Source of the DNA: Haplodiscus bocki
Lineage: Eukaryota
Assembly: GCA_965655095.1 (NCBI GenBank)
Contig: OZ296653.1
Location: 83,266,001-83,330,000 of the forward strand
Length of the DNA: 64,000 nucleotides
Reading direction: 5' to 3'
Shown here: piece by piece, positions 2,611-64,000 of the stretch
How the letters are laid out: every line of letters starts with the position of its first letter
Numbering within the stretch: position 1 is the first letter of the stretch
Position numbers and translations under genes: made by a program
Notes under the pieces: model-generated
The model's input: only the letters and a program-made list of their open reading frames with translations
Databases searched by the model: none
Told to the model about the DNA's origin: nothing

Positions 2611-2859
2611 TGATAAAATTAAAAGATTTCTTTTTTATTAGATGGAATTTATAAAATAATTTTACAATTAAAATTATAATTATATTTATTATTCATATAT
2701 GAATATTTGTGATTATCCAAATCATTAGCAATTCAGTATAAGATAACATATTCATACAAATATAATAATAGTTATAATTCGTGTAAGAGTGATTATACAA
2801 TATCATTCATTTCACAAAATCTTAGAATTTCTTTGTATTCGTAAACTATGCTTAAATAA

Positions 2860-3820: not shown

Positions 3821-3828
3821 TTATTTAA

Positions 3829-5503: not shown

Positions 5504-5505
5504 AA

Positions 5506-5661
5506 ATGCCTAGAACAATAAAAAAATCGAGATTACATTCTAATGAACATAAAACTAAAATTAAAAAAGAAGTGAATAATACTAAATCAAATTTACCTCA
5601 ACATCTTCAAACATTTAAACAGAAACTTCTATCAGGAAAGGGTTTTTTAGTATATAAATGA
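5506..5661 (+). CDS. Small basic putative core protein (51 aa)
   Basis: Lys-rich MPRTIKKSRL... ending LLSGKGFLVYK, which contains an adenain consensus site LxGx/G. Confidence 0.5.
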   Translation: MPRTIKKSRLHSNEHKTKIKKEVNNTKSNLPQHLQTFKQKLLSGKGFLVYK

Positions 5662-6948: not shown

Positions 6949-6950
6949 AT

Positions 6951-7354
6951 ATGACAGTTTTAAATTTTAAAGATTTTATGAAAAAAAATCAAAAAATGAT
7001 ACTATGATAGAATCTCAATTACAAAGAGTTTATAATTATTTTATATACCCCAGAGATTCAAAATTATATTCAGATAAAGGATTTGTAAATATTGATAATG
7101 GTAGTATGGGTGGATTTCATTGGACTTGTTTTATAGTAAAAGATAACAAACCATACTACTTTGATAGTTTCGGTGCTCAGCCAGCTAAATTTCTACTTAA
7201 ACAATTACCTAAACCGATAATATATCATAATTATAAAATACAAGATATAAATTCCAAATTATGTGGCTCATACTGCTTATACTTTTTCTATTTAATTGAA
7301 CGAATGAATTATTATGATGCTATTTTAAAAATGTATTTTCACGATTTTGAATAA
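6951..7354 (+). pseudogene. Adenain-like cysteine maturation protease
   Basis: Catalytic His (GFHW), Asp (YFDSFG), Gln (IQD) and Cys (LCGSYC). Frameshift in the A-run near 6985. Confidence 0.9.
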
Positions 7355-8839: not shown

Positions 8840-9300
8840 ATGAATTATGAAAGTTATTTCAAAGATTTATTCGAATCTATTCCTGATTATAGAAAAATAG
8901 TCTCAATAATATTTTTAATTCAAAATGAGAAAGATTTTGTAAAAGAATTTGGAGTTTTGAAAAATGATATTCATCGTTCAGGTTTAGAATTCAAAAATAT
9001 TTTAATGGAAGAAAATGAAGAATACTTAGATTATATTAAAAACGAAGAATAATCCATAATTGAAAAGATTTTGAATAAGTAAATGGAACAATATTTCTCA
9101 ACTATGTTTGAAGACGTTAGACATGAACGATCGTTAATATTATTATTATCATTAACAGATCCAGATATCTTAAGACAAAGCAAATTCACACATGATGAAA
9201 TAGAGATTATAAAAAATTTAGCTTTAGAAAAATAACACAGACAAAGAATTTTAAAAGAGCATGTCGCGATTGAATTGTTAAAAACAATTTTCTGACAAAT
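8840..9300 (+). pseudogene. Two small related helical proteins (starts at 8840 and 9083)
   Basis: MNYESYFKDLFESIPDYRKIV and MEQYFSTMFEDVRHERSLI share an N-terminal pattern. Both have premature stops. Confidence 0.4.
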
Positions 9301-9302
9301 AA

Positions 9303-9920
9303 ATGAATAACTATCCGAATTTAAAAAATGAACCAGAGTTGTTAAAGATAAAAACAAGAGATGATGAAATTAAAAATCTAAAATATCAAACGGAAAAACA
9401 TGATTATGAAAAAATATTAATGAGTCTTAAAATTGATAATGAATATTATAGGAAAAAATCTAAAAGTTTAAATAAAAAGAAAGTATTATTAATTATCACC
9501 GAAAAATTAATCGGATCAAGATCAGCAGTAGGTACTTCTACAATTTCGTTAACAAATCCAAGCATTGGTATAGTGCTAACTAGTTCTACTGCTTTGTTGA
9601 CGTCTCTTGCTATTTTAATCACGAATGAATATATATCAAAATTAAAATTACGTTATACAAAACTAAGAGATTGGATAAATTTTATTACAATTTTATATGA
9701 GAAAACATTAAATCAATCTATGATACATAAAAAAAATTGATGAAAAAGAAGCTCAAGAATTAAAAAAAGACTTATAATCATTACCTTGATAAACGAAAAG
9801 AAATTATGATTTCAACTAAATTCAAAGTAGAAGATATTTTTGGTGAATTAATCAGTAAAGATTCTAATTCACCAGAACAAATAACTACACTTAATAATTT
9901 TCTAGCGAAAATAAGGTAAT
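9303..9920 (+). pseudogene. Coiled-coil protein with a hydrophobic hairpin (putative membrane protein)
   Basis: GTSTISLTNPSIGIVLTSSTALLTSLAILIT; frameshift near 9735. Confidence 0.5.
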
Positions 9921-10183
9921 TTTAAACAAAACTTAATTTCAACTTTTTTAAACCTAAAAAGAAAACAAATATTGATTATCAACCGAGTGCTCCTCCCTAT
10001 TACGAACAAATTTTCAATTATTAATTGACAAAGACATGGTGTGTTGGTGGAAGACATTAGAGTAATACTATTAATATAACTGAATATGAAAAGAGAAATC
10101 CTAAGACTAAAAGACTCGTTAAAATTATCAAAGGAAAGTGTAGTTTTTGCAATCGAAACAAATCACCAATTTTTACTAAATAA

Positions 10184-10612
10184 ATGACTAGAGGAGAAAA
10201 ATTTTTTAAAAATGCTAAATGTACACATGGGCATAGATCAGCTATGTCAAATTCAGCATGGTGTGACCTAAATAAAAATTGTACTGTTTTGAAATTACAC
10301 GATATGTGTCATAATCCTAAGTGTAAATGTCAAAAACAAATTACTTTCAGTCCAAACCAATTTCAATTGGATGGTGATGGTTTTAAAAATACTATGAAAA
10401 AAATTTTTACGGGGACACAATCAGCTTGGAATAAAGTTCTCAAACCAGCGTTAAATATGGCTAGTCCATATATCGGAATGGCTGTTAGTGCTAAGACTAA
10501 AAATCCAAAAATTGGACAATCAACGACTAATATATTGAAGAGTATTTCAGGAGGTAAAATCTTATCACTAACCGATATGTACGGACGTGGTTTAAGATTA
10601 AAAGTAATGTGA
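10184..10612 (+). CDS. Putative protease-processed virion protein with an amphipathic helix (protein VI-like)
   Basis: Intact 142-aa ORF with a Cys/His-rich N-terminus and adenain consensus sites LDGD/G, ISGG/K and MYGR/G. Confidence 0.5.
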   Translation: MTRGEKFFKNAKCTHGHRSAMSNSAWCDLNKNCTVLKLHDMCHNPKCKCQKQITFSPNQFQLDGDGFKNTMKKIFTGTQSAWNKVLKPALNMASPYIGMAVSAKTKNPKIGQSTTNILKSISGGKILSLTDMYGRGLRLKVM

Positions 10613-10641
10613 AATCATTTCAAAGATAAATTTCTAAGTAA

Positions 10642-11307
10642 ATGAGTAATTGTATTAAAGAAATATACGATTATGATTTAGTTAAACAATGTTTAAAAGG
10701 TGGAAATACCTCACTAGAGAGTAATTTTCATGAAAATAAATCAACTAAAGATGGGTTAAACTCTATCTCTAAAGGATGTATGAAAGATTATTACTTGAAT
10801 AATTCTATTAAATTAACTCAGAAACAGAAAAATTATAATTTAAAAAATCACGATCGAATAAAACCTTATAAAAACGAAAATACAGAAAAAACTAATGATT
10901 ATAATAAAAAACATATTAAACAAAGGAGACGGCCAGATATTAATTATCGTATAATTCTTATCACAAGAAGTAGAATTTATCAAGCTTTAAAAGGAATGGT
11001 TAAATCATCTTCCACAAAAGGTATTTTAGGAATAGATATTGATACTAATAAAAAGGGGATAGAATTTCAAATGACTCCAGAGATGAAATGGTGTAACATT
11101 GAGATTGATCACGTGAAACCTATTTGTATGTTTGATGTATCTTAAGATGAAGAAATAAAATAAGCATTCTCCTGGAAAAATACACAGCCCTGGCTAAAAC
11201 AAAATCATCAACTCAAAGGTAAAAAATTTAATTTCCTAGATTATCAACTGCAATTCATTAAGGCTTATCAATTTATCAAATTAAATGATCAAGAAGGACT
11301 TAATTGA
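10642..11307 (+). pseudogene. HNH-type endonuclease
   Basis: RSRIYQALKG, EIDHVKPICMFD and WKNTQP....N..KG after reading through a stop at 11143. Confidence 0.7.
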
Positions 11308-12136
11308 AACTTTTATTGATGAAAATTATAGTAAAACAGCAAAGAAAAATTATCCAATTAAAAAAATAGTTTACAACCACATTGATGAAATCTGGTCAAT
11401 TGATTTAGAAGACTTTTCAGATTATAAAACTTCATATAATAAAGGATTTAGATATATAATTTTATTTATCGATAATTTTTCTAAATATTTGTGGGCAATA
11501 CCATTGAAAAAAAGTGAAACAATAACAGATGAATTTTCAAATATTCTAACAAAATCAAAACGAAAGCCTCTAAAAATAGAGTCTGATAGAGGAGCCGAAT
11601 TTTATAATAGTATAGTTCAAAATTTTATAAACAATAAAAATATTCATCCCTATTCAAGATTCATAGACAAAGGTCCCTCAATTGCTGAAAGAGTCATCAG
11701 AAGTGTACGTAGTTTATTAAAAAAGCCCGTATTTGAAAAAGGAAATGCCAATTGGATTTCTGAACTTTCATCTGTTAATAAACAATATAATAATACTATC
11801 CACAGTTCAACGAAAAAGACCCCTACTCAAGCTAGTGAAAAATTAAATGAAAAATTAGTATATAACAATCTCAAAGACAACAGAGAAAATCAGAAACCAA
11901 AATTTAATCTAGGACAATTAGTTCGTACAGCTGATATCAAACGAGTCTTCAGTAAAGGTGATTCAACAAGTTAGTCATATATATTATAAACTATAACCGA
12001 AGTCATTCATGACACTATTCATAGCTATAGAATCGACTACTTACCCGAGAGATAAAACGAAAATCTATTACTACCAAAAAAACTAACCCTTGATGAAAAC
12101 AAAAAAGTTATGAAAGAACTAAATTTAATTCAATAA
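11285..12136 (+). pseudogene. Retroviral-type (rve) DDE integrase
   Basis: WSIDL (D), ESDRGAEF (D), IAERVIRS (E), YNNTIHSS..KTP, PKFNLGQLVR. Premature stop at 11972. Confidence 0.92.
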
Positions 12137-12707
12137 TGTAATAAATAATAAATGGAATTAACAGAAGATGAAATTATAGAAAAAATATGCCAAACACTGT
12201 GGGCATTGTAATCGAAATACATTACTACCATACGAATAAGAATTTACTTGCGTTTCATGCGGACAGAATGTAAACAAACGAAAACATAAACTATCTAAAA
12301 TTCAACGTAAAAAATAATTTTATTATTCGATTGAAATATGCAGAACAAAAAATATTTTGTATATGTATAGATGTATATAAAATTTACGAAGGTAATGATT
12401 ATGATGAAATATTTGAAATTTTATCCACATTAAAAAATAAAAAATTGAAACTAAACAATATCTTAATTGAAAAATATAAAGATATGTTAGAAAATCCTAA
12501 TTTCGAACAAGATTATTGGTCACGAACAGCAATGAGTATTAGATTAACGAAATGGTTGATTTATTACGATAGATCTTATTATGATGATATGAATTAATTT
12601 GATTTAATGGGAAGTATTTGCTTGTGCTATTGTACTTCAGTATAATTGTAAATAAGAAGAAATTTGAGATCTTGGATAAATCATTTCAAATAATTCTTAC
12701 TATATAA

Positions 12708-15700
12708 ATGGAGATGATAGCGAAAATAAAAAACTATCACGGAATAGAAAACGAAGAATTGAACGGAATATTAAAATGGATGATGAAATGAAATTATTAA
12801 TAAATAAAATTATAACAGAAAAGAAAAAAAGAAAAATATTAATAAAATTAAGGAGTTAGAAATTAAATTAGTTGAAATTATATATTCAAACAATCCTAAT
12901 ATATTACAATCTGCTTTGAAAGAGTTAAATAAAAGTCAAGTTGTTAATAAAATTTTACATGAGATTAAACAAGAAATATTAGTAGATTATGTTGGTGAAT
13001 TTGAACTGGTCGGTAATTTAAAAGTTGGCGATCAAATCAGACAAACTCATATTAGATTATAAAATATTTCTGATTATGAAGCATATGTTAATAGCATTGA
13101 TGAAGGTTACGACAGTCAAGATAGTATTTTTCAGGGTTATATTTATAAAGTCAATACTCCTCAATTTAATTTAGTTAATAGAAGTCAATATGGTAATGGT
13201 TGTGATTTTAAACATGAAATTATTGAATATCGAGGTAAAAAATGCTTTATACCAACTAAAGGTTCTTGCTTTGTTAAATGTATTAAATTCATAACAGGTG
13301 AAGATTAGAAACAACAATATCTAGACTTTATCCGAAATGGAAAAAAAGAACAAATATTATGACAAAAGCTAGAATTCAACCATTTTGTAGAGCTAATATT
13401 ATTAATTTAGGATATTATAACGGTGATAGAGTCTTTCCTAGATCTGTTACAAATAGAGATAGTGCTTTGTTTTTGTACAAAAATCACTTTTGTGTAATAT
13501 GGAAATCGGAAGGTGTTAGTTTTAATCAAGGTATTAAAGAATTAGAAGATTATTCAAAAATAGTTATTAATTATATAACTGAAGAAAATGTTAATTCTCA
13601 TTTTAAATATGAATTCATACAAAAGAAAATTGAATCTCATCTGATTAATTTTATTGTATAAGATCTTGAAACTCGTAACACTGATAGAGCTAGACCTTAT
13701 TGTATTTCATTTTATCGATTAAGTAAATTAGAAGTAGATATAATCGTGATTTGACACCATATGAAATAGATAAAAGTAAAAGAGACACTTTAGTATTTGA
13801 TGGAGGCAATTGTAACAGTAATGCTTTAGATTTTTTAATTAAAATTCAAAGGAGAAGGAAAAGTTAAAAATAAAATTGTTGAATATAACATTCAATTACA
13901 TGCCCATAATGGATCAGGTTTCGATACTTGGATTATATTAAATAATCTCCCTTGTGATAAACATATTGTTGATATTATTAAAAATGGAAAAGGAATAAAT
14001 TCTTTAAAAGTTTTCAATGGTTAAATATATAATGGTAAAAAACAAATTCCTGAATATCTAATTTTTAGATGTGGTATGACTCATTTAAATCATTCGTTGA
14101 AAAAATTAGGTAAGACTTTTAAATTACAAAAAGAATTATCAAAAACTGAAATGAATCACATTAAAGTAGATGGTAATAATTATAAAGACAAAAAAGACGA
14201 ATGGTTAGATCATGTTAGGAATGACGTATTATGTACTGCTTTTTCATAAGCGAGATATAGGAAAGCTATGAAAGAAATAAAAGGATTTTCTATGAAGGAT
14301 TGCTTGTCTTTACCAGGCTTAGGATAGAAATATTTTAACTCGTTAAGAACAGAAGAAGACGAGCCTATATACACTTATAATGATCAATACATGAGATGGT
14401 TTGTTCGTCAATCAATAAAAGGAGGGCGAGTATGTGCATTTAATCAATATTATAAATCAAAAATTTGTGATGATATCGAGAAAAATATATCAGAAGAATT
14501 AAATGTTGAAGGAAATATTTATAATAATATAGAAACTTATTTGAATTATAAGAACAAACATTATAAAGATTATGAAGAAGAATTTGAAAGTAAATTTAAC
14601 GATTATAGAGATGAGGATGTTGATGAAAAAGAAAAATGTATCAATGAAAAATTAAGTCAACTCCCTATACATCAATTAATAAAACAAATAAAATTAGATG
14701 AATTATTATGGGATTTCGATGCTGTGAGTTTATATCCTAGCGCCATGTGGGATGAAAACAGTATTTATCCTAAAATCGAAGCGGGATATGCTTTTACAAG
14801 AGATATGAATGACGAACTTGTTGAAAAATTTAAAAATCAAACTTTTAAACAAGGGTCTGCTATATTGAAAATAAAATATTATAAACCAAAAAAATTAATG
14901 GTTCAACATCTTCCTGTTAAAGAAAAAGGAAAGAAAATTGAAATTAACCGTATGAGAAACGGATATATTATAGACCATCTAATATCTGCTGATATTTAAG
15001 TAAGCGTCAAAATTGGTGGAAAAGTAATTGAGATATACGAAGGTGTTATTTATCGAGAAAATTTTAAAGTAAGTCCATTTAGAAAAGTTATTGATAAATT
15101 GTTTACTTCAGGACAGAAAAATAAGGATGAAAATAATGAAGTTATGCATTTATTAGAGAAATTGTTGATGAATAGTTTGTATGGAGAAAATATACGGAAA
15201 GACATCGAGGAGAAGTTCGCTTGTAAATCAGAAGCTTGGATGATGACCGAATATGATGAAAGAGTAAAGGATTATTGGAAAACATCAGGTAATAATTACA
15301 TTGTTAAAATGATAGATGACGCTGGATTGGAATATGAAGTTAAAAAATTGAATACCATGCCACTTCACTTAGGCGCTTTTGTTTTATCAAACAGAAAAAG
15401 AATTATGAATAATTTCATACACGCAACTAATGGATTTTATACAAATGATGTTTATTACGGAGATACCGATAGATTATATATTGGAAACAAACATTGGGAT
15501 AAATTGGACAAAGCTGGTTTGGTTGGTAAGAATTTACTACAAGGAAAGAAAGATTATAAGGAGGGAGGTATTTTTTAAGGATTGTTTCTAGCACCGAAAA
15601 TAGAATATTGCCTCACTATAAAAAAATACGGTGTTATAGACGCACATAAGACTTTCAAAGGATTTACCAGTGTGTCTGATAACTTAGACAGAAAAGAATA

Positions 15701-15947
15701 CTTTAAAATAATTGGAGGAGATAAATTAGTAGCAAAAGTGCTTCTTAGTTGGAAAAAGTCATTTAGTCTAGGAGTTGTAATTCCACATAAAATGAAAAAT
15801 TGTAATAAATGCACAAAAGATATTTTATGTGATGATTGTGATAAATCAATAAATCAGAGAAAAGAATTCTCAGCAAATCTAAATGAATTAAAACGAGAAC
15901 CTCCGAATGATTTTGGTCATATGCTTCGTAAGTATATAATCACTTAA
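12708..15947 (+). pseudogene. Protein-primed family B DNA polymerase
   Basis: ExoI DLET, ExoII HAHNGSGFD, motif A DFDAVSLYPSAM, motif B KLLMNSLYG, motif C YGDTD, FLAPK. Many lesions; start uncertain. Confidence 0.92.
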
Positions 15948-16118
15948 TCATATTTGTTGACTTATAAATGGTTGTAAAAGTAAAGGAATCCTTTGAAAAG
16001 ACTAGACATGTTAAAAATAACGACAAATCTAAAAAAATATATTCTACGAGGACGAAGAAATGCAAGATACTATGAAAAAATTCTATCTAATAAAAAGAAA
16101 TCTAATAATTTGACTTAA

Positions 16119-24098: not shown

Positions 24099-24209
24099 AT
24101 CTGAAAAAAGTGGGAAACTATTAAGACAGTCGGCTTGCAATGACATTTTTTTGCTCCATATATATAAAACTTGCGTGAAAAAAAGCCCATACCCCTGTAA
24201 TAACTTTTC

Positions 24210-27200
24210 TTGGATTTTAAAGTATGCAGCGAAAAATAAAAACGCCCGGCAAACTCGGAGATAATTTGCGCCTTCGAATTTAGATACAAACTTCGAAAAA
24301 ATTGAGATTTGAACAACAAACTGTCAGAAAATTGCTCAAAAGTGCCTTACAGCTCGAAAAAATTGATTTTTCTCGAGTTTTACAAAAAGGAAACTGTAAT
24401 TCGGGCGCTAGGTTCATGGGAAAAACTGGTACATCGGTCGTATTCTACGGCCAATTTGGAACAATTTGGCGAAAGAAAAAAATGTCGCGTTGTTTTGCGC
24501 ATCGTGCAAGTGGCAAAGTTTATGCGAAAAACATGAATGTTGGATGAATGGTTTTCCTATATGAAATTCGGTCGGAAAATATTGAATACTTCAAGTCCGC
24601 ACTGCCCATTGCTTTCAGAAAGATACCCCAGGAGAACCAAATTCACGTTATTCGGTGATCAGAAATGTAATTGATTAACTTTCAACGTACTTCACTTACT
24701 TCTTTTGTGATATTCACAATTATTTCTTTTGCTGCGATACAGTTTCAATTCTATTTTCAAATTCTATAGCTCTCAAGCATACAATTTCTGAGCAAAAACT
24801 TCCTGATTGTCGATCAGTCACCGTTAACAAAACTAGCAAACCCCCCTGTCGGATTTGCAGAACAAATTTTCAATCATTCCCTGTCAATTTAAAGACATGT
24901 TCGCCTCCGCAACTACTGTTATGACGCTGAAGAAATTAAGTACGCATGATCATCATGACGTCATAGCCAAAAGACAATACGTGAGTTCAAGCTTGCTTTC
25001 TACGGAGTCGCTATTTTCACTGGCTTCCTTCGTTCCTTCGGCAATGACGTCACAGAAATTTGCATAGATTTGAAAAACCGACACACTGTTTTATATCTTC
25101 ATTATATATATGATTTCTAAGCCGATGGTCATGAAATCACAGTTGACTTTTTCAGATTTGTATTCCCGTTATGGTGTAAGTCAAATTTTGAAATTACATT
25201 TTACAGGCGGCTATGAAAAACTCAAAACTGGGGAAACAAGCCGGGAAAAACTCAATTGGTACCACTTACAAAAAAGTCTCAGTAAATGAGGGAGTATTTG
25301 ATGTTCCGAAAGAGTTTTCAACAAGTGAACTCTAAACAACAAAAGCGGTGTCACTAAATTGGCCGTACAAACTTGTTCAGAAACTCGTTTACAGGTATTA
25401 ATAAATTTCACACAACGAAGTAGGGTGTCACTACTTTCTGTCGAAAAAAGCTGTATTACAGAACCTAAAAAATCCACCGTGACCGTTCGGAATTTTAAAC
25501 ATGTGCTTTTCGAAAACTTTTGAGATGTGGAGTGGGGGTATCATATGCTTTTTGAGAAAAAAATGTAGACCTTTTTCCAATTGCCCTAGCCACACTTTGC
25601 TAAATTTTATATCAAATTGAAATTCAAATGGACAACAGAACAGAATCATTTCCAAAACTTCGTTCATCTTTCTGAAGGAACACTGAATGATACAGCCGAG
25701 CCTGGGTTTAACAGACCTCGGCGGCAGTCCACGTAATCTAAGCTGTATAAAGGTGTGTGTCATGTCGTGGATAGTGTCATGGACGTAAACAGGGAATTTT
25801 AACACAAAAACTACATTGAAAAATACCTTTGAAAATGACCTCGGACGGAAGAAGTCAAAATTGGTCTAACAATAACAGAAAGACATTGCAACCAGGACCT
25901 TTTATAACAGTAGACTTACAATTCAAGTTCTATTTGCCAGATGATCTGTAACAGAGATGAAACTGGGTCACTTTTGTAGATACTGGACCCTTGTGACGCA
26001 ACGAACCCTGACCAGATAAACAATCTGAGAAAAGTCAACCTTCAAATATGGGGCGAAAAACAAGATTGCCCGGCACACTACGAGATAAATTCAGCTTCAG
26101 AAAAGAGAAACGAACTATGAAAAAAATGAAAATCAAAACCGCAAATTGACAAAAATTGTTCAAAAATGCGCTAAGCTAAAGCTAGCAAAAAATGATTGAC
26201 CTCGAGTTTTACAGACAGAAAACTGTAATTCGGGCGCTAGGTTCATGGGAAAAACTGGTACATCGGTCGTATTCTACGGCCAATTTGGAACAATTTGGCG
26301 GAAGAAAAAAAATTGATGCGTTATTTCGCGTATCGCGCAAGTGGCAAAGTTTATGTAAAAAACATGAAAGTTGGATGAATGATTTTCCTACATGAAATTA
26401 GCTTGGAAAATAAAGAATACTTCAAATGCGCACTGCCCATTACTTTCAGAAAGATACCCCAGGAGAACCAAATTCACGTTATTCGGTGATCAGAAATGTA
26501 TTTGATTACTCTTTAACGTACTTTACTTACTTCATTAGTGATATTCTTATTTGTTTCGTTTTCTGTGATACAGTTTTAATTCTATTTTCAATTTGTATGG
26601 CTCTGAGGCATAAAATTTCTGATCATAAACTGCTTGATTGTCGATCAGTCACTGTTAACAAAACTAGCAAACCCCTCTGTCGAATTCGCAGAACAAACTT
26701 TCAATCATTCCCAGTCAATTTAGAGATCTGTTCAAGTTTATTTGCCTTCGCATTTTCTAACATGATCAAGAACAAATTGAGCAGGCATGATCATCGAAAA
26801 ACAATCCTTGATGTTATGCTTGCTTTCTACGGTTTTCTCACTGTCTTGTTCAGTTCCTTCGGCAATGACGTCACAGAAATTTGCATAGATTTGAAAAACC
26901 GACACACTGTTTTATATCTTCATTATATATATGATTTCTAAGCCGATGGTCATGAAATCACAGTTGATTTATTCAGATTTCTATTCCCGTTATGGTCTAA
27001 GTCATATTTTGAAGTTACAATTTATAAGCGGCCCTGAAAAATTGAAAGCTGTGGAAACAAGCCGGGAACAACTCAAACTGGTACCACTTAAATATAAGCC
27101 TCAATATATGAGGGATCCTTTGATGTATCGAAAAAAAATTTTGTCAGGTAAACAAAAGACGTGTCAGTAATTTGGCCGGACAAACTTGTTCAGAAAGTCG

Positions 27201-30200
27201 TTCACATGTATTAATAAATTTTACATAAGGAAGTAGGGTGTCACTGTTTTCTGTCGAGAAAAGCTGTATTGCACACTCTAAAAAATCCACTGTGACCCTT
27301 TAGCGTTTTAAACATGGCGCTCTTCGAAAATTTTTGAGATGTAAAGAGTGGGGGTATCCTAAGCCTTTTGCGAAAAAATTGTAGACCTAATTCCTTCTGC
27401 CCTAGCCACACTTTGCTAAATCAAATTGAAATTCAAATGAATAACAGAATCATTTCCAAAACTTCCTTATCTTTCTGAAGGAACACCGAATGATACAGCC
27501 GAGCCTGTTCAACAGACCTCGGCAGCAGTCCACGTGATTTAGGCTGTACAAAGGTGTTCGTCATATCGTGGATACAGTGTCATGGATGTAAACAGGGATT
27601 TTCAACAAGAAAACCACATTGCAAAATACTTTTCAAAATGACCTCGGACGGAGGAAATCAAAATTGGTCTCACAACAGAAAGACAGTATAGCCAGGACCT
27701 TTTCCAACAGTATACTTACAATTTGAGCTCTATTTGCCATATGTTCTTTAAAATAGATGAAACTGGGTCCTTTTTGTTGATCCTGGACCCTTTTGACGCA
27801 ACGAACCCTGACCAATTAAACTAACTGAAAAAAATCAACCTTAAAGTTTGCATAGAATTAAAAATCTGTGGCAAAAAAATGGAAACGCCCGGCACATTCC
27901 GAGATAAATTTTGCCTCTAAATTCAGATACAAACTCCGGAAAAAACTGAAATTCAAAAGCACAAAGTGACAGAAAATTGTTCAAAATTGACTTAAAGCTC
28001 GAAAAAACTGATTTTTCTCGATTTTTACAGGCAGAAAACTGTAATTCGGGCGCTAGGTTCATGGTAAAAACTGGTACATCGGTCGTATTCTACGGCCAAT
28101 TTGGAACAATTTGGCGGAAGAAAAAAAATTGTTGCGTTATTTCGCGTATCGTGCAAGTGGCAAAGTTTATGCAGAAAACAGGAATGTTGGATGAATGATT
28201 TTCCTATATGAAATTAGGTCGGAAAATAAAGAATACTTCAAGTGCGCACTGCCCATTACTTTCAGAAAGATACCCCGGGAGAACCAAATTCACGTTATTC
28301 GGTGATCAGAAATGTATTTGATTACTCTTCAACGTACTTTACTTACTTCATTAGTGATATTCTTATGTTTCGTTTTCTGTGATACAGTTTTAATTCTATT
28401 TTCAATTTCTATGGCTCTCAGGCAAAAAATTTCTGATCATAAACTGCTTGATTGTCGATCAGTCACTGTTAACAAAACTAGCAAACCCCTCTTTGGAATT
28501 CGGAGAACAAACTTTCAATCATTCCCAGTCAATTTAAAGATCTGTTCAAGTTTTTTCGCCTTCGCAACTATTACAATGAGGCTAAAAAAATTGAGCAGGC
28601 ATGATCATCAGGACGTCATAGCCGAAATACAATCAGTGATGTTATGCTTGCTTTCTATGGAGGTTCTTTCACTGACGTGCTTCGTTCCTTCGGCAATGAC
28701 CTCACAGAAATGTGGACACATTTGAAAAACCGACACACTGTTTTATATCTTCACTATATATAAAAGATCTCCAAGCCAATGAACATTAAATCACAGATGA
28801 CTTTTTCAGATTTACATTTCCGTTACGGTCTAAGTCATATTTTGAAGTTACATTTTATAAGCGGCCCTGAAAAAATGAAAACTATGGAAACAAGCCGGGA
28901 ATAACTCAAACTCGTACCACTTAAATATAGGCCTCAATAAATGAGGGATCCTTTGATGTATCGAAAAAAAAATTTACAGGTAAACTGTAAACAACAAAAG
29001 CCGTGTCACTAATTTGGCCGGACAAAATTGTTCAGAAACTCGTTTATAGGTATTAATAAATTTCACACAACGAAGTATTTGATTACATTTTAACGTACTT
29101 TACTTACTTCTTTTGTGACATTCACAATTATTTCGTTTGCTCTGATACAGCTTTAATTCTATTCTCAAAATCTATAGCTCTCAAACATAAAATTTCTGAG
29201 CCTAAGTTCCTGATTGTCGATCAGTCAGTCACCTTTGAAAAAATTAGCAAGCCCTCTGTCGGATTTGCAGAACAATTTTTAAATCATTCCCTGTTAATTT
29301 AAAAGTCTGTTCAAGTTCTTTCGCCTTCGCAACTACTGTTATGACGCTGAACAAATTAGACAAGCATGATCATCATGACGTCATAGCCAAAATACAATCG
29401 GTGAGGTTATGCTTGCTTTCTATGGAAGTTGATTCACAGACTTTCTTCGTTCCTTCGGCAATGACTTCACAGAAATTTGAAAACATTTGAAAAACCGACA
29501 CACTGTTTTATATCTTCATTATATATATAAGATCTCCAACCCGATGAACATCAAATCACAGATGACTTTTTCAGATTTTTTTTCCGTTATGGTCTAAGTC
29601 ATATTTTGAAGTTACAATTTATAAGCGGCCCTGAAAAATTGAAAGCTGTGGAAACAAGCCGGGAACAACTCAAACTGGTACCACTTAAATATAAGCCTCA
29701 ATATATGAGGGATCCTTTGATGTATCGAAAAAAAAATTTTTGTCAGGTAAACAAAAGACGTGTCAGTAATTTGGCCGGACAAACTTGTTCAGAAAGTCGT
29801 TCACATGTATTAATAAATTTTACATAAGGAAGTAGCGTGTCACTGCTTTCAGTCGAGAAAAACTGTATTGCACACCCTAAAAAATCCATTGCCACCCTTT
29901 GGCGTTTTAAAGATGGTGCTTTTCGAAAACTTTTGAGATGTAAAGAGTGGGGGTATCCTATGCTTTTCGCGGCAAAATTGTAGGCCTTTTTGCTTCTGCC
30001 CCAGCCACACATTGCTAAATTTCAATTCAAATTGAACTTCAAACGGATAACAAAATGATTTCCAAAGGTTTCGTTAATCTTTTTGAAGGAACACTAAATG
30101 ATACAGATGAGCCTTCGTTTAACAGACCTCGGCTGGCAGTCCACGTGATTCAGGCTGTATAAATGTGTGCGTCATATCGTGGATAGTGTCATGGATGTAA

Positions 30201-30447
30201 ACAGGGATTTTTAGCAAGAAAATTACATTTGAAGATGATCGCGGTCGGAAGAAGTCATAATTGGTCTCACAATAACACAAAGACATCCTAGCCAGGACCT
30301 TTTCTAACAGTATACTTACAATTTAAGTTCTATTTGCCATATGTTCTATAACAGAGATGAGACTGGGTAACTCTGTTGATCTAGGACCCTTGTGACTCAA
30401 CGAAACCTGACCAGATAAAATAACTGAAAAAAGTCAACCTTAAAGTT
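24210..30447. repeat. Tandem array of ~1.8-kb units (3 units, the third with an extra ~0.8-kb internal duplication)
   Basis: TGTAATTCGGGCGCTAGGTTCATGG at ~24395, 26224 and 28040; unit ends AAA(G/A)TCAACCTT at ~26040, 27840 and 30440; segment 28315-29075 is repeated at 29075-29830. Confidence 0.93.
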
Positions 30448-30872
30448 TAGTCAAACAATTTAGTTGCAGGTTTCACAAAAGCAGAATTTTGATTGACAAG
30501 GTCAATCAATATCAATTCGCGTAATATGGATAAATTTATGCCGCTCAGGCAGAATGTCTCCCAAGTTCTAGTACCGGATATCACGTGAGAATGTCACACC
30601 GAGCGGTGTTGAAAAAAATTAAGTGAGCCCGCTGTGATTGGCTGAACGCTCCACAGCTCACTCGGTAACAATTTTATTTCCATTAAATTTAAATTCAGAC
30701 CCTGAACCAACTTGACCCATCTTACGTTTTGTATGGGTCAACCCAATGAGCCTGAACCCAGTTTTATCTCTGCTCTATAACCCATTTATTCCTATCAGTT
30801 ACAATTTGAAATACGAAAGTAATCTAAATTTTTAAATTATCCCAGAACAAATCTCATGAAGTATTTCAAAAA

Positions 30873-54285: not shown

Positions 54286-54308
54286 ACAATTTTAAACTCA
54301 AATATTAC

Positions 54309-55070
54309 GACGGAAAATCGTGATACCGCCCCCCTTCTTATTCATGAAAAGTTTCGATACCAGAATTTTTTTGGAACGAGGAAGGGTTCCCTAAAAAATT
54401 TTTCGGTATTGTCAGACAAAACAATTTCGACGGAAAATCGTGATACCCGCCCCCTCTCTTATCCCTGGCATTTTTCGATACCCGAAATTAGTGAAACACT
54501 CAAGGATTCCCCTATGAAAATTTTCGGCACTGTGAAACAAAAAAATTCTGACAGAATATCATGATACTCCCTCCCTCCTCCCCCCCCCCTCTTATCCATA
54601 AACTTTTTCGATACCCGAAATTAGTGAAACACTAAAGTGATTACCTACGAAATTTTTCGGCACTGTGAGACAAAAATATTTCGAAGGAAAACGTGATACC
54701 TCCCTTCTTCTTATCCATAAATTTTTTTCCATAACAGAAACTCTGTGATACACAGAAGGGTTCCCTTATGAAGTTTTTCGTTTTGGTTCTGTGCGACAGA
54801 AAATTTTCGACAAAACCGTGATGCCCCCTCCTATGCATGAAAATTTTCGATACCAGAATTTTTTTGAAACATAGAAGGGTTCCCCTACGAATTTTATCGG
54901 CACTGAGACAAAAAATCTTCAACGGAGAATAGTGATATCCTTCCTTATACATAAAATTTTTCGATACGCGAAATTTTCTGAAACACCGAAGTGCCCCAAC
55001 GAACTTTTTGGCACTGGGAAACAAAAAGTTTTGAACGAAAAGTCGTGTTACCCCCCCCCCCCTCTTTTGC
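54309..55070. repeat. ~120-bp satellite, about 6.5 units
   Basis: Recurrent GAAAATCGTGATACC-C-run, TTTTCGATAC, AAGGGTTCCC and TTTCGGCACTGTGA. Confidence 0.92.
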
Positions 55071-57220
55071 AGAAAAAATAGAAATCAGTGGTGAAATTGA
55101 TTTTTGTAAAAAAAAACCTTCGGAAACTAGATTTTAAACAGTAGTCTCCTTTTTAACTATTTGCATATGTTGATCAAAATGTTTGTATTCGGGCGAAAAA
55201 TATGTGCCGGTGCTAGCCGACCTTCTTGTTCATACATTCGATCTCCACCGAGCTTTTTTATTGATTAAGCTGTTCGTTTTGACACCTAGGAAGCAAAATT
55301 CTTTTTCTTGTGTAGTAAAAAGTTTGTTCAAATTCTCAAGTGCGAAAATTAATTTGGGTTCCACACGTCCGAACATATTTCAGCTGGATTGAAACAATGA
55401 TCATTAATAAAACACCTTGCACCAAATTGGTGTTCAGAGAGTATGAAAGTCTGGACATGAAATTGGCTATTCCTGGTCATCGCTGCATTCCTCTTTCAGG
55501 GTGTCATTTTGCATCAGGAAATCTTAATGTATCAATTTAGAGAAAATCAAAAGAAGATGGGTGGTTGAGCGATGATCTTCATTATCCGTCTCTAGCCACT
55601 GCTAATGCTGGGTCAAAAATTCAGAATTCCGATCCAGCAGATAAAATTGTAAGTGTTGTCGGACCAGCTCTATCGTTTTATGTGTCAATTGCAACAAGAT
55701 TATATGAAATACTTCAAGAGTGCTGTTCTGAGTTGTTGCTCTTATGACAAAGAAAAATACAAAAGTTGTTGAACAGGAATAATGTCGAAAATGAAAAACT
55801 GGGGAGCAACGTTTTGAAAACCGGAACAATGTCAAAAACAGGTCTTTACGTCTACAAAAACGAAGTACATGTGAAAACTATCTAGATCGAAAACAAAATT
55901 TAAAAACGCAAAAGATGATGTCTGGAAACGTCTGGAAACCACGGGTAGCACCAAAGAACGTTTCAAAAGTTGAATCCACACTACCTCGAAAACACAGCAC
56001 TCAATCTGGGCGCAGAAAACGCATAGTCTTCGTTGACCTTTGAGAAAGTCAGATAAAACACATCTCTCCAAATTTTACCAAAATCACGTTTGCTCCAAAT
56101 ATGGTATAATTCAATCGCATTCTTGGCACGAACACACGTATTTGTGTTATCTATATCATTTCATTAGAACTAATTCAAAGCGTTCGAGCAGATCGTTGGA
56201 AGTATAAAACATGTCAGTTTTTGCGAATCGTTCTACACCAACTATGTTATTCAGAAGATTTCTCAGTTCCGTATTTGTCCTACCAGTTTCCGGGTTGATT
56301 TTTAATAGCTTTCGGAAATAATTCATCATAAAAGATCTAGTGAAACTTGTTGCTAATTACAAGCTTCGATCAAAGTTGCAGATCTAAAGCATTAAAATCT
56401 TCAGGATTGAGACCCCTTAATCTAAAAAATGAATCTATGAGCTGACAAGTTTTTTTGCAAGGGCAATGAAATCATTTAAACAGCAACGCAAGAATAACAC
56501 AAAACTTCAAGTTATAGCAAATTGGGTGTTGCACGTGGAAGGGGTATTGTTAATCTATTATTTATTCAGATCTGCTGGCAGTTGACTCAGTCAACACTGC
56601 TGCGTGATAGCGGAGGTTATTATTTATAAATCTCAGTGAGTGTGCCTTGCTTAACCGTGCGAACAAAGGGATTGCGTGAACTCAAGCAAGGACTTTTCAG
56701 CTATAGAATGTTAAATTACATAGAGGCGATTCAATATGTTGAATTGTGAAGGAAATATGACTGCGCGTGTGTAAGGGGAAATAACTCAGCTCTGTCTGAG
56801 GCTGTAAACGTGGGATAGCACACGGGAAAATTCCATATGGTCTTTGAGTTTTTTCAGTAGAGTCTTCCTTTTATATAAAGACAAAATTTATTTCGCTTGT
56901 TTTTATAAAACTCAACCTTGAAATCCAACTAATAATCAGTTATCGTCATTTCAAGTTTAGCATCAAATATCACAGAAGAACAGCAATTATTTCAACAAAA
57001 GTTTTGAAAATTAACGGCAGTATGGAAAGGGGTTGCCACAAAATATACGAATATAAAAAGTTATAAAGCAAGTGAAATTAACCTTGATAAACTTAGGGAT
57101 GAAGGTATAAACTCAATACCTAGTTTAAGTTAGTCCGAACTGAAAAAATAAAATTAAATATAAAAGTTGAGCTTATTGAATTGAATTGAATTGAATTGAG
57201 GATTTATAAAACCATAGATA

Positions 57221-57400
57221 GAAATCGGACTCTTCCAAATTAGTCCAAGTAAATTTTTAGTTAAATATAAAAATTGGACTCTTTCATTTGAGTCCCCAAA
57301 ATTTAAGAATTAAATAAAAAGTTTGGACTCTCATGTTAGTCACCGAAATTTGTAAATTAATAATAAAATTTGGACTCTTTCAATTTAGTCGCAAGAATTT
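57221..57400. repeat. Four ~49-bp repeats, each with a GGACT...AGTC(C) hairpin
   Basis: GGACTC at ~57227, 57276, 57325 and 57372, preceded by an (ATTGA)n run. Confidence 0.8.
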
Positions 57401-58109
57401 ATCAATCAAAATATTAAAACTAAAATTGTCTCTAGATAGCTACCTGTCGGAACTGGAACATCTGTGAACAAAGCAGAAACATACACCATTTTATTTTTCG
57501 ACCAATGCCGCTGCTGATCATTTTCGTCTTGTCTAGCCGGCTTTTTTTACGCAGTTTATTTGACGGTTTGTTTTACGTTTAGCTAATTCACGTTATGGTC
57601 TGGGTTTCAAATATTAGGCCAACGGGTTACCCTTTTAGTCCTTTTTCAGTCCGTGGTGGGAGATACCATCCAGGCTTACAGGAAGAGAGTTCTTTTTACA
57701 TGTGTTTTATTTACATTCATTTTGGACAACTCTTAGCATAAAAAGTTTCCTCCGTGCTGTGATATACACTCGCTCGTTAGGTTTAACCGTAAAGCTGGTA
57801 ATTCACCACCTGCCGCAAGTTACCATCCGCACTTACAAAACACCAGTAATTAAATTTCATTTTTATCTGCGACGCAGGACTAGTCCTAAGGACTGTCAAG
57901 CGGTCGTGGTTATTATATTTGTTTTACTTTTACCAGTTTATCTTAGTGTTAGTAAAAAACAACCACAGTGCGGTGATAACACTCGTCTACCGGGCAGCTA
58001 ATCCTAAGTCAACTGCTAGCGAGATGTCCTCTACTGGGAACCGTAATGATAACTAATGGAGGCTGGCGTCGGCTTTTCGTAGGTGCTGGTTTTTCGGCTA
58101 GTACTGGTA

Positions 58110-58320
58110 GCTGCTATGTTGCTGGTTGATTGCTAGCTGTTGCTGGGCTGCTGCAGGATGAATGCTAGTTGATGCCAAGCTGCTGCTGGTTGAAAGCTAG
58201 TTGCTGCTGTACTGCTGCTGGATAGATGCTAGTTGATGCTGTACCGCTGCTGGATAGAAACTAGTTGATGCTGTACTGATGCTGGATGGATGCTAGTTGC
58301 TGCTGAGCTGCTGCGGGATG
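58110..58320. repeat. ~30-bp minisatellite (GCTGCTGGATAGATGCTAGTTGATGCTGTA-like)
   Basis: About 7 degenerate units directly visible. Confidence 0.8.
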
Positions 58321-58830
58321 AGTTTTGCTCGTCGAAATTGACACTTAGAATTTTATTTGGGCAGAGTGACGTTAAGAGAAAAGAGGTATAAGCAACCTTC
58401 CGCAGGGCCGGAAATTAGAATTGAATGATGTTAGCTGCTCTGCAAATCGGGTGTAGGCTGAAGTTATGTCGACATGCCAGGTGACCATCATGTAACTAAT
58501 GAAAGCGCTTGCATGAAGTTATGTCGCCATACCACGTGACCATTCACTTGAACGGTCACATGACCATGCAAGCATGATACACATCTGAGTTTAAATATTG
58601 AGCTAATCGCGTTGAACCACGTTCCAACACTTTAGAAGTTTTGCTTTTTTCCTTGGCTTGTGCAATTCCAATCCTTTCAGCTATCTTTTATACTGTGTAT
58701 TACTGGGATTATCATGTCCAAGATCCCAGGTTAGTCAACCACATCTGCAGATCTCTTGTTAAACATTGGTCATTTCCTTATAAAAAGCTTACTGCGCCTA
58801 TCTGAGAAAAACAATACATTTATATAGGCG

Positions 58831-60191
58831 TTAGCTATAACGCGACAACTCACTGGGGTTAAAATAATACGAAAATGGTTGGGGATCTATAAAAGAGGAT
58901 TGAGGGTGAGATATGGAACGTGTGGCGCCTTCTGGGTCAGGTAGATAAGTCACTGACGTCTGCAAATATAAGGTATTATTTGAAGGAAAATTTTCAGTTT
59001 TGCTGAACATCTTGCTGTGTGGGAAGAAATTGAAGTTCGTCAAGGTAGGGCATCGGTCTCGGGTACACCTTCGAAAGGATATCTTCTCTGCGGGTGCGAA
59101 AGTAATAGTCTATTTTATTTGGGGGTTGAGTTGCTCGAGAACTGAAAGATGAATTGTTTTGGGGAACTGTCGTGTCAATAACCCATCGTTAAGTCCAAAG
59201 AATAAAGCGAACATGTTTCAGGCGTGTTTCCTGCTGCAGAGTCGAGACCACCTGGGAAGAACTGAACCAAAAAATTATAGCCATAAGGGTGTGTGGAAAA
59301 CAACGGGCTATTATAAAGAGTGCTGGGGTCTTTAGCAGCATCGCGAAGCCGGGTAGAAGATTTGGTATCGAAAACCAATCTCAGTGACGTTATTTTCCAC
59401 AAGGTAATGTCTGTTCCTCCAGACTCCAGTGCTCGCAATCTGTCATAAAAAAAGGTCAATTGGGATCAATTGATGTATATAATTGTTTCACGACAGTTCT
59501 TTGTCTATGTCACTTTTTCATCTAGTTGTTTGATTCGGTGTTCTAAGTCCAAAGAAGGTCCGGGAGTTCTTTGAGTTGGTAGTAGAGCTTGTGGTTGTTC
59601 AGGTAGACGGGGTTTGGATGCAGTGTTTGAAGCGCCCTCTAAAGTAATCGTCAACACAGGCTGCGATTTTTGGGCATTGTTTAGGGCAAACTTGTCTTGA
59701 AAAGCAATTGAACACGGTGGATCGATTCTAAAAGGAACAAGAAGGGAAGAAGGAGAAGGTTCATTAACCTGTCGACGCAATTGGGCTTGCTCATCTTCAA
59801 ACTGGCGAAAAGTTGTGTATAATTTAGGGCGTTGGCGTGTTTCGATATCGAGATCTACAAAGAACTGAGCCACTTATTTTTGAACTGCGTAAAGGTATTG
59901 GAAGTGTTTCATGTTGTCTAGCGGCAAGGTTCGAATTAAGGGTTTTGTTTGTTCCAGTCTTTGTCCTGAAGTTACTCTAAGTTGGCCAACTCGGGCGGTC
60001 AATAGATGCAGTTGCTCTGAAACTGTGGCGCCATTAGTAGTGGGAGAGGTTTTAGAGCACTTAGATGAGACAATAAGATCAGTTATGTCTTGAGAGGTGG
60101 AGGCATCCAATTCGGTTAGCAAATCGGGGCGGTCAATGGAGAATAATTTGGAGCGGTCTTTTGGCATAAATATGGGTGCGTGTGGGCTCAT
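58831..60191 (-). pseudogene. TRAF-like protein: coiled coil plus C-terminal MATH domain, no RING
   Basis: One frame through three stops: LEHRIKQLDEKV..RLRALESGGTDITLWKITSL..LYNSPLFSTHPYGYNFLVQFFPGGLD. After a frameshift: FALFFGLNDGLLTRQFPKTIHLSVLEQ..SFRR..FFPHSKM..NNTLYL. Confidence 0.8.
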
Positions 60192-60950
60192 TGGCCTTCG
60201 ACTGGCTGTATTTCGATAGCTGTTAGAGGTACCAGAAGTCCCTGCGATGATACAGCAGTGTTCTGAATAGTATACTCTCGTCTTTTATAATCCGAAAAAA
60301 CCATCTACCAAGTACAAAAGGCGTTAGTTAATTGGCAGTGAAAATAGGGGTTGTATCGAGGCCTTCGAACAAATTTGTGACGATGATAAAAACTCTCCTT
60401 TCGTTTCTGTTTGGAAACAGGTTGAGTGGTTTGGAATCGATTTGGTCGCGAGAAAGAAACTTGAGCGCATTGAATCGGAACTATCGGAGCTGTTGAAAGA
60501 GATGGTAGTTTCATTAGAGAAAGAGGAGTAGAATGTGATTCCTCCGACTGAATATTGTAAGAATGAGCTTGGGAGTCAAACAATGAAGGTAATAAAATGT
60601 TGGCTCAAGAATCCTGCTAAGGGAATGTAGGTTTACCTTTGAGTCGAATCGGGTTAGCTGTTAGGGAGTGAAAGAATTTGTCCACTAATCGGTTTGGTGG
60701 CTGATCCGGCAATACAACTGGAGAGATAGGAGAGGAAGAAGAAGAAAAGAGAGTGATAACATCTGGATCCGCTGGTAAATTTGAATCAGGCGAAGATAAA
60801 GGTTGATCCCAGTCTTTTCCGTTCAGCGGCGAATCGAGTTCGTCGTGTTGCAGCAAAGAAAGTGGTCGGTCGTCTGAGATGTAAAAAAAGAATATTACGA
60901 TTGAATTTAACACTTAAAAAACAGCTATCAAGTGTAACGCTCATTTTCGC

Positions 60951-63066
60951 CTAGTCAAACAGTGGAAAGAGCCGTAGTGGGGTGATGAATAATCGGGTAA
61001 AGGTGTTCTTCTTTTTTGTTTTTTTTTCATCTATTGGATCTCTGGTCACTTCCTCTAGTCTAGTAGCTGTTGGCTCAGGTTCTAACGCCTGCAGAAGAGG
61101 AACTTGGGGATTGAATACTGACGCTAGAATAGAAGTTATAAAAAAATTGCAAGAAGCGCTCATGAGTGTCTTGCCAAATCCATGTGATGCACCAGTAAGA
61201 CGCCGAATTTCCATTTGTGTTCAGACCATAACTATGAAGTCGTTGATCAACTTGATGAACAAAAAACAAAAGAAGTAAAATCCACAGATGTCCACAACAT
61301 AGACGGTTGATCCGAAAGTGTTCATAAATTGATTTTTGAAGTAAATAGGGGAAATAAATTTGTCCACATAGAAGTCCGTGCACGGAGCATATTAGGAATA
61401 TTGTTCTGGTTCATGAATTGCCGTGTTGGGGACGAAGAGTTCGCGAGAGAATTTTTCAAAAGCTTTCTGTGAAGCAGCGCCGGTAAGAATTTTGTCCAAA
61501 ATTCAGATAACAGTGCTCACGTGTAGACTCCAACATCCCCTGCTCCACCAAAAGCACTTCTGGATACAGGAGTCACATCTTCTGGTCCAAATACTGCTGC
61601 TCGTTTCCTAGTTTCTTGAGTGGGTGTGATAGTGAACTAAGAGTTCTCGTCTTCCATGTCGAATTGAAAGAGATTCTTAATCCGGTCAGGTCAATTTTGA
61701 ACTTGGGCATCTGGAAAAGTTTGTCTGGTGATTGGGTCGGCAAGGAGGATGGCATTTTTGTAGGAAATAGGGATTTCATCGTGACATTGGTTCATCACAT
61801 GCGGCGGAGAACGAATCAAGGGGTAGCGATATAGCCCAAGTGAGGCTGCCATCAGTACTCAGGAACATAGAGCGAATCCCAGTTAACATATAGCCAGCTA
61901 AACGTGGGTTCTCCATCAAAAGCATCAAAATAGTCAACATTTGTGTTCTTTCTTTTTCGCGTAGATTCTTCAAAAGCTGTATCTCGGAGCCTTCGAGCAT
62001 CTTTGAGCTTTCAAAAAATAGACAATCCAGTTGCGTACCTTGAAGGAGTTCATAATCCAGGTTGATCTACTGAGGTGTTCCTGGCTTAAGTTCATCTGTA
62101 TGGGGTTACTCAAGTTTGTGTTCAAATGGCCTGCCCTCAGACGACACTGATGGCTGTTAGTACTATAAGTGTTGTGTTCCCCCTGAAAATGCCGTTTTTA
62201 TCCCAAGGGCCAGATCAACTCCACCACAGTCGATAACCAAGTATAACCAATCGTAGTTGGTCGAGTAACCTTGTACTGGTTTCTTGCAAAAATTTGTGGT
62301 TCCAGTTTTTTCTCGAAGAGATACTGGCTGGTGTTGTTACGTCCACTGGCAAAACACGCAATTGTGCGGGGCGTCCCATGTGTATGCGTAAGGGTCGAAC
62401 GAGGTGGTGTCACATGCGAGTTTTTCCAGGGGGCAAGGTAATTGCAATCCATCTTACCTCATAACTTTGCCTTACTTAGTGCGTTCTTTAAACACGGCGT
62501 CTTGTACATTGCCTTCGAAAGTCTTCCGGTTCACCGATCCATATAAGTGGCATTCATTTTTGTATTTGTCGCTGAAGTCCGCTCCATCGTCATCAAAACC
62601 TTTTTGTTTTACAACCGTTGTTTTTGTTCCCTTCTTGAACTCGAGTGTCTCATCCTTTAAAATGATTGAACCTCCATTCGCTAAGATTCTGCATTGAGAT
62701 GCTGTGACAGGTAAGTCTTCTGTTATTCTTCTTGCATGATGAAGGTCCATGCTTTCGTCGTCTCCATACCCACAGTGCCATTGTTTGCTCTGATGTTTGA
62801 CTCTACAGACTTTTGCGTTGATTTCTTGTCGAAAATGTTTTGTATATACGTCGTGAAATTGCTCTACTGACTTCTAGGTTCTCTGGAGGAATGTTGCATT
62901 TGGAAACCTGGTTCAGGGCGTGGAGGCTGGTTTCTGTCTTTTCTCCAAAGTCCTAATGTGTAACTTGAAGTTGGGAGGCTATGTTGTGCAAGTCTGCGTT
63001 TTCGAGCTTGCTATTTGTGAAACTGGCCAATATAAATAAGAACACGACCTGGTTTCTAACATCCAT
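60951..63066 (-). pseudogene. Envelope glycoprotein, chuvirus-like (class III fusion) type
   Basis: Signal peptide MDVRNQVVFLFILASFTNS; degenerate YDC motif (TH*DFGE); WHCGYGD, SQCRIL, LPCPL...CDTT..DPYAYTW, ENPRLAGYML, FPDPITRQTF; C-terminal TM VVDICGFYFFCFLFIKL. Confidence 0.75.
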
Positions 63067-63299: not shown

Positions 63300-63978
63300 T
63301 AAATTGATCTTACTTCCACCATAGGTAAGTTGATTTGTAGATCCCAGTTGGCTTTTAGCGTCCAACTATCAGGGTTTTGCTTAGTGTCGGAGCAGACTGG
63401 TTGATTGTTATGTATTGCCAAGACTTCGTAGGGTTTGTGAACGACTCACCTACCTTCTTCGCCTATTGTCTGAGTGCCAGGTTGTAGAGATTGCAAGTTC
63501 CGTGTAATAAATTGATCAGTGACAAACCAGTATAGGTCCCAAGGTTAACCTGCAAATACGCCAAGAAATCTACCAAATTTTGGTTTTCCGTCATGTCCAA
63601 AATCGAAGTGGCCAAGTTCCGACTGGCGATTGTGAGAGTCACAAAGAGATTGGCGAATCTTACTATGTGGGCAGGTATTGGGATGACGACTACAATCGGT
63701 AGATTGTCAACCTGGTCAAATCTTTCTTCGACGGGACTTCCGTCAGGTAGCCAAAGGATATTATAATTTTAAGCTCTCCCAAGTAAGTTGAAGTCCCGGT
63801 GCAAAGAAAAACTATTCTGGTGAGTGGTGTGTTTGTGTTCGACTGTGAGGTTGATACTTCTAATTGATGGATTCAGATGATGAGTTCCTCCATTCCACAC
63901 TCCAGGTCTCGTGGAATAAAAATGTCTCCTGCGAACAGTCATCTGATGTGTTTGTAGACGACTGATGTTGGTGGACAC
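63300..63978 (-). pseudogene. Unknown accessory ORF upstream of env
   Basis: The frame of 63769-63978 reads on through a stop as ILWLPDGSPVEERFDQVDNLPIVVVIPIP..LVDFLAYLQVNLG. No RT/IN motifs. Confidence 0.4.
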
Positions 63979-64000
63979 TTGTAAACTTCCAGATTCCCGT

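Follow-up and report, generated by a model that had tools for sequence, protein, structure and literature searches.

Ty3/gypsy elements of Haplodiscus bocki carry a host-derived RING-less TRAF gene behind a class III envelope gene

The window analysed is a stretch of 64,000 nucleotides (nt) from Haplodiscus bocki (GenBank assembly GCA_965655095.1, contig OZ296653.1, positions 83,266,001 to 83,330,000 of the forward strand). It covers, on the minus strand, the decayed 3' part of a Ty3/gypsy retroelement of 19.3 kb in total, which is ordered gag, pol, Monjiviricetes-type env, an open reading frame (ORF) termed X, a TRAF ORF and a long terminal repeat (LTR). The gag, pol and 5' LTR were recovered from genome stretches adjoining the window. 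The features of the element are listed below in window coordinates, unless another locus is given.

56527..58847, minus strand: 3' LTR, TG...CA, about 2.3 kb, with 85.2% identity over 2382 columns to the 5' LTR.
58903..60191, minus strand: captured TRAF-like ORF with two coiled coils and a MATH domain, without RING or zinc finger.
58951..59410, minus strand: MATH/TRAF-C domain of the TRAF ORF (PF21355).
60188..60880, minus strand: ORF X, about 205-230 amino acids (aa), conserved in five families.
60955..63066, minus strand: env, a class III, gB-like fusion glycoprotein, decayed in the window copy and recognised by homology to young copies.
63300..63800, minus strand: remnant of another small ORF, in sense orientation and 5' of env; judged by eye from sequence similarity, family E appears to have its counterpart. 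A Pfam scan of the remnant gave no match.
63801..64000 and onward to G000:C6:83341822, minus strand: the element beyond the window edge, with the pol-env intergenic region, pol, gag, a site like a primer-binding site (PBS) and the 5' LTR.
G000:C6:83339501-83341822: 5' LTR, 17 kb upstream of the 3' LTR.

The element was classed as Ty3/gypsy on its paired TG...CA LTRs, its PBS (a PBS-like TGGTGCG, 3 nt beyond the LTR) and a gag followed by protease, reverse transcriptase (RT), RNase H and integrase in Pfam order. Close relatives of the RT are all unnamed, and named ones share about 30% identity with it. Target-site duplications of 4 bp were seen in two of four copies examined, the alignment not resolving the ends of the other two; none is recognisable in the old window copy.

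An earlier interpretation of the window (the sequence-only reading) had described an intronless ORF with a coiled coil and a MATH domain on the strand of env. It is present, running from 60191 to about 58903 behind env at 63066-60955, and the TRAF-C motifs quoted for it were found in the minus-strand translation. The ORF comprises about 430 codons, is interrupted by five in-frame stops and one frameshift, and has an additional N-terminal coiled coil beyond the coiled coil and MATH domain. As a check on the domain call, PF21355 (TRAF-mep_MATH) was run against the broken C-terminal half of the window ORF (E 6e-4) and against unbroken natural copies (E 1e-19 to 4.5e-17), and matched both; the unbroken ORFs are 431-465 aa long in families A-C. 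The predicted structure of the element TRAF consists of two coiled coils and a complete MATH sandwich. Its best Foldseek matches were TRAF5/1/4 (E 1e-12), and the best named matches in a viral structure library were megalocytivirus viral TRAFs. Scans of element ORFs from families A-E gave no Pfam match or Cys/His pattern for a RING or zinc finger, in line with the earlier claim that both are absent. The decay of TRAF and env is also as similar as proposed: against a young copy, the window TRAF has 58-62% identity (dS, synonymous divergence, 0.98; dN/dS, the ratio of nonsynonymous to synonymous divergence, 0.26), and env, which is interrupted by stops and a frameshift, has about 60% identity (dS 1.2). 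Two distances had to be revised. The 0.8 kb given between env and TRAF holds as a length (0.76 kb) but not as a spacer, the interval being occupied by the conserved ORF X, and the LTR starts about 55 nt rather than 0.2 kb 3' of the TRAF ORF, with no poly(A) in between.

Related copies fall into five families, A to E, of 16-22 kb with separate ORFs. Relative to family A, pol is 78-80% identical in B and C, 73% in D and 58% in E (B to C, 85%), and TRAF is about 39% identical in B, 46% in C (C-terminal half), 36% in D and 30% in E. The genome was searched with TRAF DNA (40 scored matches of 1,153 candidates) and with PF21355 (150 matches scored out of 2,967 candidates, with open frames 433-475 codons long at many of them); these candidate counts are not copy numbers. 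All 29 non-self loci matched by TRAF DNA continue into the LTR, and 25 of the 29 reach env within a 1.5-kb flank. Among 30 PF21355 loci examined, 26 are element copies and four are not. In further searches, the scored TRAF matches numbered 98 for the C type and 137 for the D type.

Linkage was then read from both directions. Ten copies picked for long open TRAF frames, and hence biased to young copies, have env upstream in every case; in seven, gag and pol are present and the LTR ends agree at 99.3-100%, two are internally deleted with both LTRs, and one has an internal duplication. An unbiased test was provided by env-anchored family A loci, with self excluded: TRAF lies within 1.5 kb in 24/29, and the remaining five are broken off or deleted after env. 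TRAF is present in 29/30 X-anchored family C loci, and env, X and TRAF are present in all four pol-anchored copies of family E. TRAF-anchored long stretches have env upstream in A (10/10, the ten copies above), B (6/6) and D (4/4), with X between env and TRAF in B and D too. In families B-E, LTR ends are 96.5-100% alike wherever both were recovered. Linkage of gag-pol, env, TRAF and LTRs in other copies, on which the sequence-only reading had staked its proposal, is thus established, and its env-carrying LTR lineage with TRAF as a fixed accessory gene extends over five families.

The TRAF gene is under purifying selection in these families. Pairwise dN/dS was 0.13-0.24 among 15 distinct unbroken ORFs (among the pairs listed with dS >0.15; A-to-B pairs are saturated). 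With bootstrap, dN/dS was 0.15-0.19 in A, 0.15 in B, 0.22-0.24 in C, 0.08-0.32 in D and 0.07-0.12 in E, with upper bounds of 0.12-0.54; shifted and antisense frames gave 0.8-2.0. In pairs where TRAF gives 0.15-0.19, gag, pol and env give 0.04-0.10.

Several loci showed rearranged TRAF copies. Three tandem units of TRAF, LTR and element start lie at one locus (L018), and 1.8-kb tandem TRAF copies similar to these units lie at C4:103.37-103.40 Mb. In two deletion copies (L039, L054) the start of env is joined in frame to MATH, and database proteins P0162 and P0173 resemble these fusions. The idea that a copy near C1:34.98 Mb represents a sister family without TRAF and with a free-standing PAM2 micro-ORF was rejected, as the copy is a deletion variant (1/30).

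The genome has two non-repetitive host genes, H1 at C5:50.4 Mb and H2 at C5:9.06 Mb, whose similarity to the element ORF spans the first coiled coil and MATH; H1 matches at 26% across 356 aa (E 3e-41). Both contain GT-AG introns, one of them within MATH, and the element ORF reads through that site; capture would have proceeded via spliced host RNA. A tree of 59 rows, built with host TRAFs as the sequence-only reading had suggested, nests the elements with a lineage-specific host clade: element TRAFs, H1/H2 and unnamed relatives form one host-type clade apart from canonical TRAFs (100/99), within which the 16 A-D sequences are one clade (100/99). In a second tree, with 18 of the 59 rows omitted and two family E rows added, family E groups with P0190 and P0198 (100/98) inside the same larger clade, and a single origin of A-D plus E is neither rejected nor shown (approximately unbiased test, p 0.38). 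The branching order of A-D differs between the two trees, so co-divergence with RT is only partly supported. The elements lack a zinc-finger remnant that is retained in proteins of the host clade, and this favours transfer from host to element. The best named relative of the element TRAF is a fish TRAF5 (31%), close relatives being all unnamed, and no relative was found in a metagenome scan with P0190. Taken together, the results strongly support a Ty3/gypsy radiation that has a class III env and keeps, as a conserved accessory gene, a TRAF that is derived from the host and has neither introns nor a RING.

At L093/L094 and L097/L098, degraded fragments of host-type TRAF form inverted pairs with a spacing of about 2 kb; they have no DNA match to the element.

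The genes that accompany TRAF were characterised in unbroken copies. Env is a separate ORF of 720-760 aa after pol, and PF24664 (Monjiviricetes_fusion) matched unbroken natural copies at E 1e-33 and 4e-43. Pol has the domain order protease, Macro, RT, RNase H, integrase, the Macro domain being barely past the cut-off (E 1e-4). Macro was observed between protease and RT in the pol at L082:908-6439 and at G000:C6:83335700-83336600, with a stretch before it that is dUTPase-like by eye; Macro-like sequence was seen in two of 14 database pol relatives tested. ORF X has an acidic N-terminus, a basic stretch and a small five-strand barrel (predicted local distance difference test score, pLDDT, >90 for residues 161-200), with dN/dS of 0.11-0.34. 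Pfam and PDB sequence searches with X gave no match. The Atlas returned Ets domains at 0.82, as a lead only, and a fold search returned SH3/Tudor/chromo-like barrels (Z <=4.2), an arrangement that is common. Two further small ORFs were observed in families C and D. One, antisense, of about 180-220 aa, acidic and proline-rich, lies in the pol-env interval (L088:7606-8274, plus strand; L207:9459-9986, minus strand) and gave no match in a Pfam scan. The other, sense, of about 150 aa, directly follows pol (L088:8423-8887, minus strand; L207:8859-9317, plus strand) and gave no usable Atlas match; in family C it holds an S-L-x-x-L-x-C...L-P stretch that presumably recalls a BC/SOCS box, without database support.

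The arrangement of X and TRAF suggests how both would be expressed. In families A-C, X has no start codon close to its 5' end, before which stand a pyrimidine tract and AG; X is therefore likely a spliced exon. The X stop overlaps the TRAF start as ATGA in A, TGATG in B and TAATG in C; the spacing is two bases in E and about 70 nt in D. A spliced subgenomic RNA would thus express X first, and in A-C TRAF would be translated after X by coupled termination-reinitiation. Stop-start overlaps of the UAAUG type drive such coupling in other systems, as excerpts of PMC2699510 describe.

Conservation differs along the TRAF protein. With four sequences a group, the segment with trimer contacts in the model scored 0.68 in A-D versus 0.70 in the host clade, and strand beta-7 scored 0.17 versus 0.70. 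We take beta-7 to be the peptide-binding edge strand, with peptide-contact residues as in TRAF2/3 structures. A trimer modelled from two host-clade chains and one element chain scored 0.66 (best control, 0.00), with contact agreement of at least 92% between runs and a partner pLDDT of at least 81; the score mark was attained by 51/78 solved and 2/108 mismatched pairs. The conserved trimer segment, the diverged beta-7 and the mixed-trimer model together favour, tentatively, an element TRAF that may serve as a poison subunit in host TRAF trimers and damp stress or cell-death signalling. The element protein would join host trimers, as in the predicted mixed trimer, and the mixed trimers would act in cells with an active element. 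RING-deleted TRAF2 acts as a dominant negative. A dominant-negative TRAF2 is also named in excerpts of PMC7674171.

Several results weigh against a poison subunit or narrow its scope. The host chain in the model was P0124, a database relative with 74% identity to H1 and not the genome's own protein, and solved TRAF trimers exist, so that the model's pass may show family likeness only. Exon-blind searches of the genome found no Rel homology domain or NF-kB, and one TNFR repeat and two TIR matches; a target in TNFR/TLR-to-NF-kB signalling is therefore not established. Family E retains a canonical beta-7 and groove arginine and is a better fit to receptor competition. A and B retain the first coiled-coil motif in common with the host, but C, D and E do not. 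TRAF-deleted copies occur in A and C, and since one young TRAF-less C copy (99.9% LTR identity) was inserted, TRAF is not needed in cis. The upstream exon of H2 resembles database protein P0133 at its beginning and seems to encode the start of a single zinc finger and no RING. The donor was itself likely RING-less, although a further upstream exon is possible, and RING loss was thus probably not the element's own invention.

Other roles for the protein were weighed against the same data. It is conceivable, with a fairly small probability, that the element TRAF is a rewired adaptor or degrader: its MATH groove would hold new partners and its PAM2-like N-terminus would tether MLLE (of poly(A)-binding protein, PABP, or a UBR5-type ubiquitin ligase), and element RNA would be protected or a host factor sent for degradation. 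PAM2 binds MLLE. In families A, B and C a pattern LNxxAxxFxP is located at the initiator Met despite differing flanks; it occurs once in the 127,996 positions of the six window frames. Its Pfam PAM2 scores of 15.2 and 16.5 bits (E 0.017 and 0.0066) are both under the 20-bit cut-off of PF07145, however, two family B N-termini scanned gave no match, and the motif is absent in D and E and eroded in the window copy. Variation of beta-7 among families suits new partners. The genome encodes MLLE followed by HECT-like sequence, read by eye as UBR5-type; the sole match in an MLLE search of the genome was partial and not PABP. A competitive decoy, which is the strict form of the proposal in the sequence-only reading, is rather unlikely; element homotrimers would bind the TRAF-binding motifs in the tails of receptors or adaptors and exclude host TRAFs. 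The complete MATH fold is consistent with it, and family E and database relatives P0190/P0198 resemble canonical TRAFs in their groove arginine and in the S-x-G pattern of beta-7, but A-D, the window's family included, have lost the beta-7 glycine, and among them only B keeps the groove arginine (A has Q, C has K, D has N).

That TRAF always lies behind env in every family could also reflect a structural or trafficking role for the element, such as scaffolding Env or particles at membranes with host signalling unaffected. Two-LTR copies with internal deletions fit this role, as they lose gag-pol and keep env, X and TRAF (2/10 and 2/6 in two sets). We consider it improbable: TRAF evolves faster than gag, pol and env, as host-facing accessory genes tend to, and TRAF-less copies still inserted. 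A neutral passenger, or a chance independent retrocopy in one element, would agree with the broken window copy. It is contradicted by the five families, by dN/dS far below 1, by the conserved start coupling and by the lack of poly(A) between ORF and LTR; neither a poly(A) nor a target duplication of its own, by which the sequence-only reading would have known a retrocopy, was found for the TRAF ORF. The linkage and selection results refute this explanation, to which we assign almost no weight.

Elsewhere in the window, positions 1-15989 form an AT-rich block that is flanked by inverted repeats of 60 nt (98%) and holds remnants of a double jelly-roll, an integrase and a type B DNA polymerase; judged on these sequence features, it is a decayed Polinton/Maverick-like element. 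Positions 24200-30500 and 54300-55050 contain tandem units of about 1.8 kb and a short array whose units measure about 120 nt.

To our knowledge, complex vertebrate retroviruses and large DNA viruses are the typical carriers of accessory genes that target host signalling, and Ty3/gypsy elements offer hardly any documented case. It is possible, though doubtful as a whole, that an enveloped Ty3/gypsy lineage independently reached the organisation of complex retroviruses, with spliced and antisense accessory ORFs, Macro in pol, a transactivator-like X and a stop-start-coupled TRAF antagonising host signalling. TRAF would have been captured once or twice, kept across families down to 58% pol identity and still be copied, outnumbering host TRAF genes by at least two orders of magnitude. 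A single genome here shows the donor clade, the absence of its introns from the elements, the purifying selection and a large number of young copies. What looks like an expansion of RING-less TRAF genes in an invertebrate genome can be cargo of transposons.

Known systems share parts of this arrangement. Vertebrate TRAF1 is a natural RING-less TRAF, according to excerpts of PMC7674171, and the host donor appears similar in layout; TRAF1 is not an orthologue by the tree, and the element version is also without a zinc finger. ORF111L of the megalocytivirus ISKNV is likewise a virus-borne TRAF from a host but, in excerpts of PMC3352826, is a DNA virus gene that keeps its RING, binds TRADD and promotes apoptosis, whereas the present TRAF is a retroelement gene without RING. 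Ty3/gypsy errantiviruses with an HSV/gB-type env, of which excerpts of PMC13524379 report several intact copies per genome, share the gag-pol-env order, the RT-RNase H-integrase pol and the class III-type env; the present elements have an extra Macro domain in pol and several small ORFs. The words TRAF, Macro and accessory do not occur in the main text of PMC13524379, and its supplements were searched and were without TRAF. The term 'macro domain' was not found among the literature matches listed.

Also close is the planarian gypsy element Burro/GYPSM1, which carries MATH_TRAF_C and env according to excerpts of PMC6431247 and is a precedent where the sequence-only reading knew of no described example. 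In the literature searched, mostly open-access and without Repbase reports, Burro was the only precedent found for TRAF in an LTR element. The same excerpts describe a gypsy-like LTR element in thousands of copies, whose env is homologous to mononegaviral fusion proteins. Between its protease and RT lies a dUTPase-like region, and its MATH_TRAF_C is a separate accessory ORF in Dugesia tigrina. Burro differs in that it exceeds 30 kb, has env inside the gag-pol polyprotein and has MATH upstream, beside BIR, BCL2 and ankyrin (PMC6431247, excerpts), whereas the present elements are shorter, have separate ORFs and carry a TRAF that groups with a clade of their own host. From position and donor, in trees without Burro sequences, the capture was probably independent of Burro. 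The idea derived from Burro, that retroelements meddle with apoptosis or ubiquitin signalling, becomes directly testable here through one protein of 250-460 aa. TRAF with env in a gypsy element is already known from Burro; what is new here is the visible donor clade, the different layout and the measured selection.

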